Source of the DNA: Lama glama
Taxonomy: Eukaryota
Assembly: GCA_028534125.1 (NCBI GenBank)
Contig: CM052816.1
Span: 50,904,001 to 50,968,000, forward strand
Direction of reading: 5' to 3'
DNA: 64,000 nucleotides
The position numbers were made by a program, and so were the translations under genes. The notes under the pieces are model-generated. The model searched no databases. It was given only the letters and a program-made list of their open reading frames with translations, and was not told where the DNA came from. This document shows, one piece after another, positions 4,600 through 40,029 of the stretch. Positions within the stretch are counted from its first letter, which is position 1. The number at the start of each line of letters is the position of its first letter.

Positions 4600-4890
4600 T
4601 GTAAGCATATGGTTATCAATTTATCAAGAACAAGTTTTCCAGGCAAATCTGATCTCCTATACAGCTAGGAGTGTTTGATGTGTAGATCAGAGGAAGACCA
4701 CAAACATAATTAATTGTGCTTTCATCAAGTCTTCAGACACTGTCATTCCTGACTTTTTTTGGAGAAGAAACAATAAAATGTCTAGGAAGTTGAAAAATAA
4801 AATGCAATGAATACTGATGAATAGATCCAAATGAAAAACAGGAGGGCCTCAGTACCATTTCGTAGTTATGTCCTTGCTTCCAATTGCTTT
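4600..4890 (+). mobile_element. L3/CR1 RT-region fragment
   Basis: tttatcaagaacaagtt...caaatctgatctcct...gtagatcagaggaa...tttcatcaagtcttcagacactgtc is a decayed version of CR1 RT motifs (KSC.TNLISF / DFSKAFDTV). Confidence 0.6.
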
Positions 4891-4952
4891 ATTCATTCAG
4901 TAATTGATTAGTTAAATAGCCTACTTTCAGCACTGTTTTATGAGCTGGAGAT

Positions 4953-5001
4953 AAATATATATATATATATTTGTGTGTGTGTGTGTATGTGTGTGTGTCT
5001 G

Positions 5002-5047
<46 letters not shown>

Positions 5048-5145
5048 ACATAAATAAATTCCTGGCTTTATGAAGCTTACATTATAGTGGAAGTAAAAAG
5101 GAAATAAAAGCATGGAAGGGTAATAAGTGTGTGTGTGTGTGTGTG
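4953..5145. repeat. Compound (TA)n(TG)n microsatellites within an antisense L2 3' end (~4890-5100)
   Basis: TA/TG runs at 4955-5046 and 5127-5145; flanks ttattcattc...gagctggagata and cctggctttatgaagcttacattatagtgg are L2-like. Confidence 0.85.
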
Positions 5146-7389
5146 AATAATTATAGATAGAGTGGCCAGCATAGGACTTAGTGTTACAACACACACAAGT
5201 AAAGAATTGAAGAGGGGCAGGGAGGAAGTCTAGTACTGCTTTACTCACCACTGCACCATACCACTTAACATAATGGTTAGCACAACCTGGTACTGAGTAA
5301 TTTTAAGTAAATCAACAAATAAATAAAGTTTGATTATCTACAAAGGCCTTCATCCCACTAACCATATCAGTCTTAAGCATTTCCTATAGAACAAAGTCAT
5401 CTGGCTTTGATTTTTCACTTGTACTTTCTGATGACTTAAAAGAGTCACAGAGTGAGGAAAGCAATAATTCTCTGGCCACCACAGCTGCTATGGGAGTGTC
5501 ACCTGTTGTTGTTTCCCTTTGACTCAAAGACGGTTTGAAAAAGGTCCCTGTATACTTTGTTAAGAGCATGTGTTAGCTGGGGGTGAAGGGTATGCTATAC
5601 CAGGGAATATGATTCAGTTTAGTGCTTGTATCCCTTTTGAGAGTCTGTAGTTATAGTCTGGAGTGATTTGAGGTGGAGTCAGCCCTGAGGGGTTTTTCAG
5701 AAGAAGTAGGGGAGGGGAGGATGAGAGAGGTCCTGTTGACTCTACTCATAAAATGGAATCAAGCCAATAAAGTCTTCTGAAAGATGGTAAATATCTCCCA
5801 ACAACTTTCAGAATGTCTGTTAATACTGATAAGCTTTTTCCTCGAGGGTTTCGCTAAAAACTCTCAAGCTCATGTTTTTTTAAAAACAGCCTGAGTTTCC
5901 CAAGGAACTGCCATGTCACTGATGTTCTTTGTCTCACTGCTGGCTTGCTGGCAGTACACTTAGCAGGCCCTCTCTTTCTCTTTTGGGTTGTCTGAAATGG
6001 TGAAAAAATGGAAAATATCAAGAAAGCTGTTACAACTACCTCTATAACAGCAGCAGCCTTTAAGGAATTATCTTCCATTTCTTGTAATTAAATGGCTTGT
6101 GATTGTTTTTTAAAATGCATTTACATCAATCTAACCTGCCATAGCAAATCCATCAGTTAAATTTTCCTAAAGACTGACTAAGGATGAAAGTCAGCAATCT
6201 CCAAACAGGATGAAAGTGATTGGGTAGTTTTCCAGAGCTTTTACCCTGACGAGCAGAGATTAAGTTGATCCTGAACCAGAGAGGAGATGAATCACATGGG
6301 TCCTAAATATCCATCTACAGGGCACTGTTCTTGCTTTTTGACCTATGTCAGATAATGAAAGACCATAAATACACCTACATTCTTTAATGTTACATTCTTA
6401 CATTCTTTAACATACCTATATTCTAATGATAAATATCCCTTGCAATATTTCATTTCTCACTTTTCTATACCAGTTCTTCAAGAATGAAGTGTAAAACAAA
6501 TGGAAACAGCAGGGTGTGGTCTTTTGCCCAAGACAGTCATTAGTCTAAAAATGAGTTTTTCGTGAACACCACCCTTGCCTTTCCCCTTTAGTCTGGAGAT
6601 TCACATTTCCTTCGGTAAAATGTAGTCCATACGTAATATAGTGCTCATCTAATTGTGGTAAAGCATGTTAAGCTCTCAGAGAAATGCAGGATTTTGAAAA
6701 CAAAATATTCAAAACTACACATACTTTTAAGTTCAGGTATACTAAACTAGAATTGGTACTCATTAGAACAAGGTCTGGAATGAAGTTTAGTTTTTTATAA
6801 TGTCCATTTCTAGATAATTTATATATACTCTAGAAGCACCATTTATGAATATAAAAGTTAATATACTAAGTAGTCATCATCGTAGGTCTCCATTAGATAA
6901 ATGTATTTTTGGTCTAGCTACATTTATGCACTTGAAATCAAGGAATGTACTTTTTTGTTCTACAAATTGTTTCTTTTTACTAACTTGTATCTCTCTCTCA
7001 AATAAGAGGTTTTGGTTTAATATTAATATTAATCTCCTCTACACACTTACACAATTCCTCCATGTAGTCAGAGGTATATTACTAATTTCTATAGAGAGAA
7101 GTCAAACAGCCTACACAATGTTAAGAATATTACCAAAATTTGGGTAAAGTTATTTCCATTTCACAAGCTAGATGAAGTTAAACATTTCAAAACCTACCAG
7201 AACACGGGGGTATTTACTGCCTTTTAATTTGATTTTCTAATTATAATTTTAATGTATTTTTTTTCCTGGAAAATTAAACTCTGCTTTTTTACCAAAGAAA
7301 ATGGGGGAGGGGAGGATGTGGGGAGCAAAGTTTTTAGAGATAACTTGCCAGACAAGGTCTTCACTCCTCAAGTAAGTCTACCTGAATTC

Positions 7390-7508: not shown

Positions 7509-10500
7509 GAAGCTAAATTCTTGCATGTTGTTCTTTAAAGAGTTGACATTCAAAGAATTGCAGGAACTGAACAAGCCAGCTTTCTGATTCTACTTTATCC
7601 CAGACATGCCACGGTTCTTAATCACTGCTGTGTGATGGCTTTGTCTGAGGGAAAAGTTCTGTTTAGAGTTCTCCAGGGGCAGCCTCATGGAAGCCAATGC
7701 TGAACCCAGCACCCAGAGTGGTCACTTGGCCCAAGGATAGGAATCTAGATGCTGGCCATGGCCTACTGTAATTAACTGAGCATGACTGAAAAAGAGCCTC
7801 TAAATGCCTGGAAATCTAGAATGAGAATGAGAAAATAAGTCAATTATTCATAAAATTTGGAGATATATAATCATTATAGCAGAAAATCTGGAGAGGCCAT
7901 GGTAGACTATGAGAGCTTAAGAAATTTAGAACAATTTTCTCCAAAGATCAGGGAGGCTTGCTCCTCCTTACTTGTACCACATTAGACTTTTTGTTATTAG
8001 CTAATAATTAATAGTTTGGAACCCTTTGAGACAGACTTCATTTAGAAGATCTCAAAAAGTCCCTTTGGTTTCTACTCAAGGTAACATTAAAAAATGAGTT
8101 ATTAGTCACAAGGCTGTGATTAGTCACAGTCCTCTGTGGTGAGATTTCTCTCCATGACCATCTCAGAAATGTGAATACAGACTAGAGACATCCCTGTCTT
8201 AGGAGGGCCAAGCTCAGACATAACTGTCATGGCTTCTCTTTGTTTCGAAAGATCCACCTTCCTCTTTTAGACTCAAGATGATCCACAAACATTTTTTCAG
8301 TTACTACTTCTCCTCTCTCAGTTGAGGCATGAAGAGATGACCCCCCTCACCCAGAAAGAAATTACAAAGTAACAATGCAAAAATTCCCATGACAAGATGT
8401 AAAATCTGTCTTTACCATAAACCCCCATTTTCTGATCACCAATTGGTGATTTTTCTGATAAGATTCTTTAAACCAAAATAACCTAGTTAAAATGACTTTC
8501 AAATCAATCATCTAGGGGCACTTCAATAAGGGAAAATCAGAGAATCATGGAATTAAATGGTCACTGAAGAACTAACTGAACCCCTTGCCTGCAAATGTTC
8601 ACTATATAAAAGAGACAATTGTTGTTCCTATTTTGCAGGCTCTTTGATGAAGTTGTTTCAAAGTGGATGTAAAAACTCTCCAAATCATGTTAATTGAAGG
8701 TGCTCTGGAAAGTGGTCTCATTTCCCCAGATCAGGCTTCCTCCTGCCTCATCTCCAAATGTAGGCTAAATTGACCTCATAGGGGTTCTACTGATCTATTG
8801 CAACTCTGGGCCTTCAGTTCCAATGTAAAGCCATTCCAGTTAACCCTGGGTCCAAGGCAACCTCCAGAATGACCCATCATGGGCAGGATTTCCTTCACTG
8901 CTTCCTTGATTCACTTTGTCAACATTCATTGGTGAAGGGCTTATAGTAATTCAAACATTGCTCTGGGTACAGGACTTAGAAGATTGTAACAAGCTCTGCT
9001 ATTACAGCTCTTACATTCAATTTGGGGAGAGCAAGAGACAAAAAAAACACAAATGAGTGAGTGAGAATATGCAGAGAATAGCTCTTAGGAGAGCTGGGTG
9101 TCTTCTTCAGATTATGATGCTGACCTCTTAAGAGTTCAGGGGCTGGAATGATGAGAAAGACAATCAAGAAAGTTTAATTAATATGTTTTTTTGAAGCCCT
9201 CTGCCTCGGTGCCTATTTCTAGAGTCCTCCCTGAGAGCTCCAGAACAGGTAGGAGCAGCAGGCCTCCCTCTCTGTAGACACCAATCTGTGTATATCACTA
9301 ACAACCCCTGGTCATTTTAGATCCCAGAGGACGGGGACACGAGGGTGAAGGGTTCCTGTCTGGCTGTACACTCTGCACCCTGAAAGCCTGAATCTAGACT
9401 CTTTACAAAGAGGAAGTAAAACAGCACCTTTGTCCACTGGAGATACAGAAGGGACAGAAAACCTCTCCATTTTCTATTTTGTGCCAAACCACCTCAGAAA
9501 AAGTAAGGGACCTAGGGAATGAAAAGTTGTCCCTTCATTTTCTAGGGCAATCATTTTTAATCCCTCATATTAAGAGGCCTACTTTATTATTCCACAACTA
9601 AGTTAATTTCAAAATCTTTTCTCAACAGGGCTCCTAATAAGAAGCAGATGTGGGAACCACCTCAGAACCAGGAGAACCCCTCTCTCCTATCTCTCCCAAC
9701 CTCTGTCTGTTGCAAGCAAGCCAAATTTAAACCAGCAATCATGCATGTTTCCAATCAGCCCTCCAACTTTCTCCCTGTGGAAGTAACTCCTTGGCTTGCA
9801 CAAGGGAAGGAAATGTTTCCTTCAGAAAGCAATGCCAGGACAGGGAGCAGCTTATTCTCACGATATTTAGCATGCTAACCAGCCAGTGCAGTGAGAAAAA
9901 TTGATGTAAGAGCAGCCAGGGAAAGGCCAGAGAGGACCCAAGCCAGCAGAAACAATGGGAAAGCAGAGAAGGACTGGGGAAAACATTTAGAAAGTTTGAG
10001 CACATGAAGCTTGTCTTCCTAGAAGTCCTCCCTGTTGTGGATCCTTAAGGAAATGTGGTCCCTGGTGAGAAGAGCTGTCTCTCCCGCTGTCTCATACATG
10101 CCTGATCATAACAGGAGACAGAAATGATAGCCTGAAATCCACAGAGGGGGTGGGGTCCAGTTTTTGCAGCATGTGGAAGAGGGGACAGTACACTAGTGTA
10201 GCTGAGAAACAACTGCCCTTCATGTGTTTTATGACAACTCTCGCCAGTAAAAAAAAAGTAAATATCTTGCTGCACCATGAAAAATCAGAAGATGCCACGA
10301 CTGCCCGAAGAGGTTTCCATGAATAAAGTGTGTCTGGGGGGAAAGTCAAATTAAAATGCAAGAAATACTCCTTCTTCACCCCACCCTCCTCCAGCCTCAC
10401 TCATTCTTTTCTCGATCCACCCTACTCCCCACCAAACACTTCTCAGCATCCTTAGAAAATGTGTGAACTCAGTTGTGAAAAACTTAGAGCTATTTGAGGC

Positions 10501-14854: not shown

Positions 14855-15175
14855 TGTATTCTCCAGAACATGATAGGCTATGCTGCAGTAACAAACTCCA
14901 AAATCTCCCTGGCTTAACAGAACAAAGATTCTTTTCTCTCTCAGGGAAAGTCTGATGTAGGGGGGCAGATTTTCCAGGGCAGGTCTTCCTTTGGTAATTC
15001 AGGGTTGGAAGTTTCTTCCACCTTTCCTTAAGCAGGGGACAAGGAATGGAGGAAGGACATTGACTTTTAACTTGTACTCACAGTCTGTTGTCTTCCGTTA
15101 GTTGCACAGCCTTAACTGCAGGGAGGAGAGGAGACTTAGAAAAGCACAGGACATATTTAGCTGGTCTTTGCCACA
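14855..15175 (-). mobile_element. MLT1 (K/L-like) MaLR solo LTR
   Basis: tgtatt...ggctatgctgcagtaacaaac...tggcttaac...ctgcaggga...ctttgccaca, with TG...CA ends. Confidence 0.7.
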
Positions 15176-15395
15176 TTCACATTCACCCCGTTACTCAACT
15201 GAAGCTGGGGGAGATTAGTTTTGATGGAGTTGTAAGGATAACGCAAGAGCTGGCTCCCTGTGCAGGTGGCACAGGTCATCTCTGTGGGATGAGATGGGAG
15301 GGGAGGAGCTAGGAAACAGTGCTGTCTCCCTTCACTTATGCCTAAAATGTCTAGGCTCTTCTATTATTTGAGTTAAACATTTAAGGCTGCTTTTA

Positions 15396-15641
15396 CTTAA
15401 CTTGTAAAACCACTTTATTCAAGTATGACTGACATATCAAAACACTGTGAATACTTCAAATATACAACCTTTCCAATGCAACTTTTCTCATTTCTGTGCC
15501 CCACCAGTGTGCTGTGATCTCTCACCTGGATTCTGAAACTCTCATAAAGGTGTTTTTGTCCAGGGATGGTTGTTAAACCAGTGTTTCTGTGAGCGGACAA
15601 GGGCTGGGATCTCCTATTCTGCCATCTTGCTGACATCACTC
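15396..15641 (-). mobile_element. Mini L1 retrocopy: L1 5' end (174 nt) joined to L1 3' tip (72 nt), flanked by TSDs
   Basis: Direct repeat aaggctgctttta at 15383-15395 and 15642-15654. Minus strand starts GAGTGATGTCAGCAAGATGGCAGAATAGGAG (L1 5' end with YY1 motif) and ends ...ATGTCAGTCATACTTGAATAAAGTGGTTTT (L1MB-like 3' tip with AATAAA). Confidence 0.8.
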
Positions 15642-16024
15642 AAGGCTGCTTTTAAAATACAAATATTATCTAAGAGGAACACATTTTGAGCTAGACTATG
15701 TACCAAATGAGGACTCTAAAAGGGACAAATGAGAAATAAAATTCCTCCCCAAGTGAAGGGCCACAGGCTCACCTTCTGAGATCAAGGTTTGTGTTATGGT
15801 CACCAGCCTTGATCACCCAAGGGCAGATAGCTACCCTCAGTAAGAAGAGGAAGAACCATTTGCAGATGAATAGTGGCTCTTCTCCACATCCCCACTCATT
15901 TGACCTCAAGCCATCAACAACTTATGTGGACCTGATTCATGAGTTGATTTTATCAAGACATTCCGCTAGCCTCTGAAAAAGTAATCAAAATGAAGTAGTA
16001 AGTTAGACTGGGAAACACCATGCC

Positions 16025-16240
16025 ATGGTAGTAAGCTACATGAGCTGTCAGTCAAATAGACCTTGGCTTGTACCATTAATCCCACTTGTTACTAGTGATG
16101 TGAGTTGGGTGATTTGCTTTATATAAATGAGCCTCATATGTAAAACGAGAATAATATCCTCTAATATTGCTTGGAGGTTGCAGCAGGAGAAAATCACGTC
16201 AAGCTTCTGGCTCAGAAAAGGTACTCAATGGATGTCAATT
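16025..16240 (+). mobile_element. MIR SINE
   Basis: agtcaaatagacctt...actagtgatgtgagttggg...atgtaaaacgagaataata...ctggctcagaaaaggtactcaat. Confidence 0.65.
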
Positions 16241-37105: not shown

Positions 37106-39829
37106 TCCTCCTCCTTGTGATTTAAAACTTTAGCCCATAATCTCAGTGAAAGTGGGAAACAAGTTTATTCCCCACTAGACATCTAGTCCTTGAGTTTTGA
37201 CATTTTTGGGTTGAATGAACAAAAAAGAAAAAAGATTACAAGAGATTTTGAGTTTGAAGAAAAAGAAGACACAAGAAATGCTGACTTAGAAAGGTGGAGT
37301 GTTAACTGGGACAGCCTCAACAAAATAAACTGAGAATGGAGGGGGAGGGGGGCACAGATAGCATCTAGGATGAAGCAGCAAGAGAAAGTGAAAATATTTA
37401 GAAAGTCCTCAGATAAGCAGAACAATTGATTTTTATAGCGGTTAAAGAAGGTATCAGTCACCTGATTTTTTTTTTTTAAACAATGAAGGCAAGGAGAATA
37501 TGTGGTACTCAGATCCCAAGTGAAATCTGGAAACTATCTAATGTTCATCGCTTCCTCAAAAAGAAAAGTCTACAATAGGACACATCAAGATAATGACAAA
37601 TCTCCACATGGGCCAGACTGCTGACAGCAGAGCAGACCAGCCTGGCACCATTATCCTGACTCATGTACCTCACATACTTGGCAGAGGCAACTGGAATCCT
37701 TAATCAGAGACATAGTCCCCACCTGCCACCTCCAACCAGCTCAGAGCTGTCCAAACTGCAATCTCAGGTGGTTCCAGCCAATCAGCATCTCTCACAGGCC
37801 TTGCTTTTCTAAAGTGGGAGAGGTATGACGGTCCTTGGTTTGAAAGTCCTGCCTACCACTTCCCCTACTCCACCTCACTTTCAGGGGCCAGGCTCTGACC
37901 GGACTGCATCAGACTCCCTGCTTGGCAGAACTTCCCCATTCAGAACCTGACTTTGGTCTCTCATCTTTATTATTTTTCTTTAACAATAATATTCTTTAAA
38001 AAGTACTGAAATACAGTTCCACCCTGTCTCCTCATTCACATATTCTTTCTCAGTCTCCTTTTAAACTGTTTTTTCTCAGTTTCTATAAAAATCATTAATT
38101 TTGAACAATACAAATATTTTATTTCAGATAAGTGACTCAATAATAAAAGTGATGTAAAATGTACTAATCAAGCCTTTGAAAGCTTAAGTGCTTTTATTCA
38201 CATCTATGTTTTAATTTAATCTAATTTAGTTGAGTTTTTGTTTTATTGGGATTTTTTTTTGGCTTAGGTTTAATTATCTACAATTAACTGCTCCATGTAA
38301 AGTTTATTTAAAACCAGAATTAGTTCACTGAGATTTTCCTTGTTTTAGTCTGTGACGATCAGAAATATAACAGTCACAACAACTTACTTTGGTTTTCTTT
38401 TTGCATTGGCAAATTTTCTGTAATCCACATGCATCAAAATGATACAAAAACCAAGGAAATATTCATTTCCCCATAAAAATCTGACTCTTATTCTTTAATT
38501 CATATAGTAGGTATTGGAAGAGCCGAACTAAAATGATGCCATACTCTAAGGATCTGTTAAAGATATTTCTAAATTGATGTCATTGAAATTTTTAAATATT
38601 TTAACAGCAGTATAATATATTGACAAAGATACTTCTGTATTATACACTAATTTTCAGTTTCCTATGATTCATACTCCATGAAATACTTTTATTTTAGTAT
38701 GTACTATCAACATTTAGTAATACTTTAGTATTTAGTATAATTTAGTTTAAGTTTTTTTTTAAATAATCAACTGTGAGCTAGCATTTTAGAAGATGAGCTT
38801 TTATATACGCTTTAAATGAAATCCAGTTCAAAAGAAATCTTGGAATAAAAAGCTTAATCAATTAAAAGGCATTTACTAAGTAGGCGGCATGATGTTAATT
38901 TGGCACTAAGGAACACAAAGCACAAAAGGACAGGTGTCTGATGGGAACACAATCCCTGTTTTGCTGTCTCCCCCGCCAGGGCCTGCATCTAAGCCTTCAT
39001 TCCCTCGCATCTGCATAACTGAAATATCTGTCTGGTCCTTCTCCCTCCCAGTCCCCACTGTCACCTCCAGCCACACCCCATGTGGCAGCCTGCACAGATC
39101 GCCAAGTTCCTCTTCCTAAACTATTCTTTTTATTATATTTTACTTCCTCCTAAAAAATATTTAAGATAAAGTCCAAGATCTTCAGTCATATATAGAGTGA
39201 AAAACAATTTTAGACTCAGATCCCAACCCACACCCTGGTTTGGACACTTCTTATCTGACTGACTTGAGTAAGTTGCTTGATGTTGTGAGTGAAATGGATA
39301 CAATTATCATTACCTCTCCAGGGTGAGCAGAGGAACAAATGAATAGTGTACGTAAAACCTGCCAACTTTACTCAATTTGTTCTCTTCCCTAAACTCACTG
39401 GCTTTGGGTATCTTTTGTTTTATCTGACCTTGTTTTCCTTTCTAATTAATTCATCTCTTTAAAAGACTTTTCTGCATCAACACTCTTTGCCATATTATGT
39501 TAACTACACGCAACCTTTGCACATGCCTTTAGTTTTCCCACCCCCAAGCTTTGGTTTATGACTTTTAAAAAGTAACATCTATTTATGAGCTGATATTGTG
39601 TTGTACTGATATATTAGCTTATTTAATCTTAATACATAATATATTATTACAGATTAGGAAACTGAGGTTTCAAAAGGTTGAGAAACTTTAAATGCATTAG
39701 CATCTATCACTGTGAGGATGGTACTCTTATTTTTCCCTTTTACAGATAAAAAAATCTTAAAGAGGTTAAAAAAGTTATGAGTAGTGGTTTCAAACAATTT
39801 AGGTCGGCTTGCTTCAAAAATGATAGAAT

Positions 39830-39951: not shown

Positions 39952-40029
39952 AAAAATGATAGAATAATTGTCCCTTAATTTCCTAGGGGGAAAAAGTAAA
40001 AGATAATAGTAACAGTTTATAAACAAAAC

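Follow-up and report, generated by a model that had tools for sequence, protein, structure and literature searches.

A single-copy 246-bp element joining the two ends of an old L1, probably the retrotransposed copy of a spliced RNA

The minus strand of the window (the whole 64-kb stretch of DNA analysed here, C1:50904001-50968000 of the 2.35-Gb assembly in which all genome searches were run) carries a 246-bp element at 15396-15641, with a perfect 13-bp duplication on each side. In the element's sense, its parts are as follows; in this and later sequence readings a slash marks the join or splice site, except in the endonuclease motifs.

15642..15654, minus strand: duplication (TSD), upstream copy in the element's sense (TAAAAGCAGCCTT), with TTT before it; matches 15383-15395 at 13/13 positions and adjoins the first L1 base.
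15468..15641, minus strand: putative exon 1, the first 174 nt of an L1 5'UTR, running from the 5' terminus shared by the family up to the splice donor and ending ...GGAAAGG; assigned from homologous loci and an alignment with 19 copies.
15621..15629, minus strand: CAAGATGGC box close to the element's 5' end; a motif read in the sequence.
15467..15468, minus strand: putative exon-exon junction ...AAAGG/TTGTATA...; unspliced copies read GG/GTAAGA on the donor side and ...AG/TTGTATA on the acceptor side.
15407..15467, minus strand: putative exon 2, made up of the final 61 nt of the L1 3' end and containing AATAAA (15414-15419); assigned from an 81% match and an alignment with 26 L1 3' ends.
15396..15406, minus strand: degenerate A-rich stretch (TACAAGTTAAG) at the place of the A-tail of other copies, whose 3' ends read ...GTGGTTT(T)AAAAA there.
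15383..15395, minus strand: duplication (TSD), downstream copy; a perfect match to the upstream copy.

On the plus strand, the repeat at 15383-15395 and 15642-15654 reads aaggctgctttta; in the element's sense the upstream flank runs ...ATTT and then TAAAAGCAGCCTT, which gives an L1 endonuclease site of the TT/AAAA type (TTT(T)/AAAA) and a duplication of 13 bp, or of 12 bp if its first T is coincidental. The element itself opens with GAGTGATGTCAGCAAGATGGCAGAATAGG and closes with ...AATAAAGTGGTTTTACAAGTTAAG (minus strand). Its 3' part occupies 15396-15467 in total, 72 nt made up of the 61 nt of exon 2 and 11 A-rich bases, and it lacks a clean poly(A) tail: ...AATAAAGTGGTTT is followed by the 11 A-rich bases, which are degenerate, and these by the duplication, beginning TAAAA. 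Both 300-bp flanks are single-copy in the genome. These readings agree with an earlier note on this DNA, whose positions for the duplications, the join (15468/15467), the CAAGATGGC box and AATAAA all proved right on re-reading, as did its description of an intact 13-bp TSD at an L1 endonuclease target. The CAAGATGGC box is presumably a YY1 motif, at which YY1 binding would be putative here; work by Athanikar in 2004 reportedly concerns YY1 and human L1 initiation.

How much weight the direct repeat can bear was assessed by counting non-simple 13-mer direct repeats at 50-400 bp spacing, of which there are three events in the 64-kb window, the element's TSD being one. Since block shuffles lead one to expect ~1 such pair per window, the 13-bp repeat is unremarkable by itself; its exact abutment on both ends of the L1-homologous stretch is far beyond chance. 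When the 272-bp stretch of element and duplications is used as a query, the L1 homology of other loci begins at query positions 11-24, and the first base past the repeat is position 14. Two more non-simple perfect direct repeats were noted in the window, at 9487-9499 / 9655-9667 (13 bp, 168 bp apart) and at 39816-39829 / 39952-39965 (14 bp, 136 bp apart), and these may be the TSDs of other small insertions. A (TG)n microsatellite, lying in several blocks at ~4970-5140, is the source of almost every raw 13-mer repeat pair in the window. A Pfam search with 17 of the window's 18 long open frames (the frame at 4889-5302, on the (TG)n run, was omitted) returned no family.

Of 79 candidates for the 272-bp query in the genome, 40 were scored; these comprise the window itself and 39 other loci, which match at 72-85% identity. 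All 39 matches, within that scored set, are confined to query positions 11-192, and the join lies at position 187; the homology therefore begins at the duplication boundary and ends at the join. For alignment, 19 of 29 fetched non-self loci were kept, the 10 with the shortest matches having been dropped; most of these end before position 145, and L023 (reaching 181) and L030 (reaching 173) are among them. The best-kept portion of the 19-copy alignment is the AGCAAGATGGCAGAATAGG block around the CAAGATGGC box. Because mutual similarity among many of the 19 copies breaks off upstream of the bases with which the element starts, the alignment indicates that the element carries the 5' terminus of its L1 family. 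Three loci, L012, L016 and L018 (C1019688, C220631 and C36:62951179), share common sequence upstream of the usual terminus; they are duplicated loci or else a variant extended at its 5' end. Contig C37 was found to be rich in this L1 5'UTR, with 9/39 of the matches to the 272-bp query (among 40 scored of 79 candidates) and 8/27 of the matches to the donor pattern described below.

That this 5' sequence belongs to an L1 is indicated by what lies downstream of it. An open frame of L076, a locus chosen by the donor pattern and to which the 174-nt 5' part itself has no match at E 1e-4, contains Pfam Tnp_22_dsRBD (E 2.3e-11) and Transposase_22 (24.1 bits against a cut-off of 22.4). When the L076 ORF1 fragment was used in tblastn, 5/10 other fetched stretches (L070, L072, L071, L067 and L075) showed an ORF1 region on the strand of the 5' part and 0.7-2.3 kb downstream of it. 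Pfam searches with 13 frame pieces of L072 gave sub-threshold ORF1 matches and no reverse transcriptase, and RVT_1 in L074 fell under its cut-off (24.8 against 29.6 bits), so that the L1 identity of the long copies rests on ORF1 together with collinear homology.

The 72-nt 3' part, used alone as a genome query, matched one other locus, L032 (81% identity, E 3.6e-6); against the window it gave chance 10-11-mers only. A longer query taken from L032 recovered 39 other L1 3' ends (among 40 scored of 604 candidates), and from the fetched loci an alignment of 26 distinct 3' ends was built (30 loci minus 4 exact duplicates). The element's tip has a mean identity of 0.76 to these 26 ends and keeps the blocks TTGTATA, ATATGTCAGTCATAC and AATAAAGTGGTTT. 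Among the 3' ends recovered, L038-L046 and L051-L052 are identical or near-identical and lie on tiny unplaced contigs (C844784, C843781, C224315, C844113, C843232, C223486, C363683 and C363628); these are likely to be redundant assembly pieces, and they raise the apparent copy number if they are not collapsed.

The 5' type and the 3' type of sequence occur on one strand, 2.6-6.3 kb apart, in 4/11 fetched 10-kb stretches. In L072 the 5' end lies at ~65 and the 3' end at ~6326-6376, ~6.3 kb apart. This arrangement in longer copies indicates that the element's halves are the two ends of one L1 lineage; taking the length from the one decayed copy L072, we infer a missing interior of ~6 kb. The earlier note's claim that both halves are L1 is thus borne out by the 5' loci, by the 3' ends, by the collinear longer copies and by the ORF1 domains downstream.

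The same note had supposed, on the strength of old L1M consensus sequences, that the join is an exact GT-AG splice. We examined the donor and the acceptor in the genome's own unspliced L1 copies, not in consensus sequences. On the donor side, GT stands right past the aligned last exon base in 11/19 copies, typically as GTAAGA; among the remaining 8/19, L009 has GTAAG one column off and 7 have decayed forms such as ATAAG or TAG. A 30-letter unspliced-donor pattern matched 27 places in the genome with <=3 mismatches and 0 in reversed controls. Most of the 27 read GGGTAAGA and 25 read GT, a count that is not independent evidence, since the pattern presupposes GT. On the acceptor side, AG directly precedes TTGTATA in 19/26 3' ends, or in 15/22 when five near-identical small-contig rows are taken as one; the other ends have AA (4), AT, GA or a 3-base insertion.

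From these alignments the ancestral reading is reconstructed as ...AAAAGG/GTAAGA...(~6 kb)...CATTGAG/TTGTATAC..., and the element reads ...AAAGG/TTGTATA... One G at the join can be assigned to either side, and one of the two assignments is the canonical GT-AG. With this 1-base ambiguity allowed, and using the GT and AG frequencies of three long copies, random breakpoints would fit GT...AG in ~0.5-0.7% of cases. GTRAG occurs 4-11 times per long copy, and GGTAAG once in the 6.3-kb copy; the chance with GTRAG is ~1e-4. Graded against the textbook consensus, the predicted donor is strong. The acceptor is weak, because the stretch upstream of it (...CTTATCCCCAAACTCATTGAG) is merely moderately pyrimidine-rich. 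Since GT and AG are found at the homologous places of unspliced copies, and given the low probability of such a fit by chance, we conclude that the element is very probably a retrotransposed copy of a spliced L1 RNA, similar to the human SpIREs considered below. The splice supposed in the earlier note thus gains support from the genome itself.

In the most probable course of events, an old L1 family would first have produced a full-length RNA whose transcription began at the L1's own start. Splicing from the 5'UTR donor GG/GTAAGA past nt 174 to a cryptic acceptor ..AG/TTGTATA, 61 nt short of the point where the 3' UTR ends, would have removed ~6 kb with ORF1 and ORF2 and left a polyadenylated product of ~235 nt with no coding capacity. 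Because such an RNA encodes no protein, its mobilisation would have occurred in trans: proteins supplied by another L1 would have copied it through target-primed reverse transcription, with TTT(T)/AAAA as the target site, to give the 246-bp element between its 13-bp duplications. The removal of both ORFs as one intron and mobilisation in trans, which had been proposed for this locus before, would follow from the GT-AG join.

The age of the insertion bears on which L1 gave rise to that RNA. Over the 5' part, the element is 0.725 identical to the other copies, which are 0.676 identical among themselves; over the 3' part, the corresponding values are 0.764 and 0.841. With pairwise identities of 0.68 among 5' copies and 0.84 among 3' ends, the L1 family is judged to be old. 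On a star tree, the distance from the element to the ancestors of the compared copies is ~12% for the 5' part and ~17% for the 3' part; both values are rough, the first being biased low by a 5' set picked by likeness to the query and the second coming from a 3' set that is seemingly a younger subfamily. By simple arithmetic, all 26 duplicated bases would be intact in ~1-4% of cases at 12-17% divergence. An intact TSD is therefore unlikely at that divergence; the insertion may be younger than it appears, its source being a decayed L1 copy or another subfamily, or the repeat may have survived by luck.

This discrepancy raises a variant of the splice reading, in which an old L1 copy that had already decayed supplied the RNA and a younger L1 mobilised it in the manner of a processed pseudogene, the insertion being much younger than its divergence suggests. 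Beyond the poor fit between the perfect 13-bp duplication and 12-17% divergence, the 11 degenerate A-rich bases past GTGGTTT look like a transcribed, decayed A-tail, and they would end 18 nt past AATAAA, a usual cleavage distance; A-tails, however, decay fast anyway. The sampled words of the 1251-bp stretch at 14900-16150 are all present in runs labelled as three organisms; the insertion is therefore shared beyond a single assembly, which sets only a lower bound on its age. Against a decayed source stand the genome searches, in which no near-identical source copy was found and the best matches were 78% (5') and 81% (3'), and the roughness of divergence estimates made on 60-170 nt. On balance a decayed source seems to us rather unlikely. 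As a separate observation, contigs of two RNA-seq runs from one study hold 0.52-0.55 of the sampled words of 14900-16150, the stretch being taken as a whole, and part of this neighbourhood may be transcribed.

It could also be argued that splicing played no part, and that a longer or full-length L1 was inserted whose interior was lost through a later deletion, or through a jump during integration in which the reverse transcriptase left the 3' tip and resumed at nt 174, on its own template or on a different L1 RNA, the GT-AG fit being coincidental. End joining or template switching would be in keeping with the 1-base microhomology (G) at the join, and internally deleted old L1 copies do exist in the genome, L068 among them. 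Both breakpoints nevertheless fall exactly on GT and AG, against the chances of ~0.5-0.7% and, with GTRAG, ~1e-4 given above, and the donor is present in its extended form GG/GTAAGA, when the 6.3-kb copy has but a single GGTAAG; we therefore hold a deletion or template jump to be very unlikely. L068 (G000:C4:67362700-67372650) is an old L1 of the same family, ~2.6 kb long, in which ORF1 is joined to ORF2 at ~870-897 and ~4 kb are missing relative to L072. It was considered as a second spliced form and rejected, because the ORF1-ORF2 join shows no clear splice and holds ~27 unassigned bases.

Whether the spliced RNA gave rise to more than one copy was addressed by searching for the join. With the whole 272-bp stretch no second copy of the junction was recovered, no match extending past position 192 (among 40 scored of 79 candidates), and an 80-mer across the join returned the window's copy only from the whole genome (1 candidate). 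A 30-letter degenerate junction pattern with <=3 mismatches likewise found the window's copy alone in the whole genome, and 0 in reversed controls; the equally long unspliced-donor pattern, serving as a control at the same threshold, found its 27 places. We estimate that copies ~15% diverged pass 3 mismatches ~1 time in 3, and short diverged queries perform poorly, the 72-nt tip having recovered a single one of the hundreds of 3' ends. The searches exclude a large family with the same junction; a handful of old copies may exist.

These results tell against the earlier note's suggestion that the element belongs to an unrecognised SINE-sized family of L1 derivatives, for which that note had itself named a junction-spanning search for independent copies as the check. 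The element does retain the family's 5' terminus, the CAAGATGGC box and AATAAA, and ORF-less bipartite derivatives are described for RTE, Ingi, Vingi and R2 in the account of Kojima 2018 (PMC5786205); but with the join present once in the genome and the unspliced control in 27 places, it is highly improbable that the element is a member of a self-propagating, SINE-sized, ORF-less 'mini-L1' family with an L1 promoter start and a poly(A) signal. A weaker form of the idea, which we offer as a highly improbable speculation, is that the nt-174 donor is conserved and functional, perhaps kept through overlap with promoter elements as has been argued for the human nt-98 donor, and that the element is a survivor of rare ORF-less, promoter-bearing mini-L1 RNAs mobilised in trans, further members lying below the sensitivity of our searches. 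If true, such a rare RNA class would give the L1 clade an equivalent of the bipartite non-autonomous LINEs of RTE, Ingi, Vingi and R2.

Under the favoured reading, a retrotransposed spliced L1 RNA, the element is probably a single, old, apparently inert copy and an evolutionary dead end. As a single fossil copy with no sign of function it carries small weight. It would imply that, on at least one occasion, a tiny transcript derived from L1 and keeping both of its termini was open to mobilisation in trans without founding a family, and for annotation it is a warning that a short pair of L1 '5' end' and '3' end' matches is not necessarily two fragments.

The closest known relatives of such an element are the human SpIREs, described by Larson et al. 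2018 (PMC5860796) as L1 RNAs spliced at a 5'UTR donor and retrotransposed, and judged there to be evolutionary dead ends. In that paper's account the donor is nt 98 and the acceptors are 621, 789 and 975, giving the classes 97/622 and 97/790 within the 5'UTR and 97/976 into ORF1; ORF2 is kept, the copies measure ~5-5.5 kb, and the 131 described belong to L1PA1-L1PA6 only, with none found in older subfamilies (PMC5860796). Spliced forms without a working ORF1p are stated to need trans-complementation (Larson et al. 2018, PMC5860796). SpIREs are recognised by collinear L1 sequence on both sides of a gap, on one strand, by GT and AG at the limits of that gap in unspliced L1, and by the hallmarks of L1 integration. 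The element has such collinear sequence on both sides of its gap, together with a TSD of 13/13, a TTT(T)/AAAA site and, in place of a clean tail, 11 degenerate A-rich bases followed by the duplication's A run. Like SpIREs, it combines a 5'UTR donor with a downstream cryptic acceptor and appears to have been retrotransposed with a duplication, an endonuclease site and a full 5' end. Unlike them, it derives from an older, different L1 lineage in a non-human genome, its donor lies past nt 174 and its acceptor 61 nt before the end, and it is a single copy of 246 bp without either ORF, whereas the human classes recur. The literature we covered, outside of which lie Belancio 2006, Belancio 2008 and supplements, yielded no L1 retrotransposed with its 5'UTR joined to its 3' end, a result that does not establish absence from print; the two Belancio papers reportedly contain lists of genomic spliced L1s.

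Long-range joins are known at the RNA level: in the SpORF2 RNAs, as Belancio et al. 2010 (PMC2896524) present them, human L1 5'UTR donors are joined to far-downstream acceptors and ORF2 is kept. SpORF2 is an RNA species and not a genomic insertion, whereas the element is a genomic insertion without ORF2. In its proposed mode of formation the element resembles a processed pseudogene, in which, on the description in PMC5860796, a spliced, polyadenylated RNA that codes for no L1 protein is copied by L1 proteins in trans and duplications arise alongside; it differs in that its template would be L1's own RNA, from L1's own transcription start.

Bipartite ORF-less LINE derivatives offer a further parallel. 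As set out in Kojima 2018 (PMC5786205), these are multi-copy, arise by internal deletion and are reported for RTE, Ingi, Vingi and R2 only, and HAL1, of the L1 clade, retains ORF1 (Kojima 2018, PMC5786205; Kojima 2018, PMC5753468). Like the bipartite LINEs, the element consists of its parent's 5' part and 3' part; unlike them, it is single-copy and its deletion would be a splice, and unlike HAL1 it is without ORF1, possessing the 5'UTR and the 3' tip only. A lone copy agrees both with the view of spliced L1s as dead ends and with that account (PMC5786205), under which no ORF-less bipartite derivative is known for the L1 clade. If the element is indeed the copy of a spliced RNA, it widens the range of SpIREs to include an old L1 lineage outside primates, another donor and an intron that comprises nearly the whole L1, both ORFs being lost.
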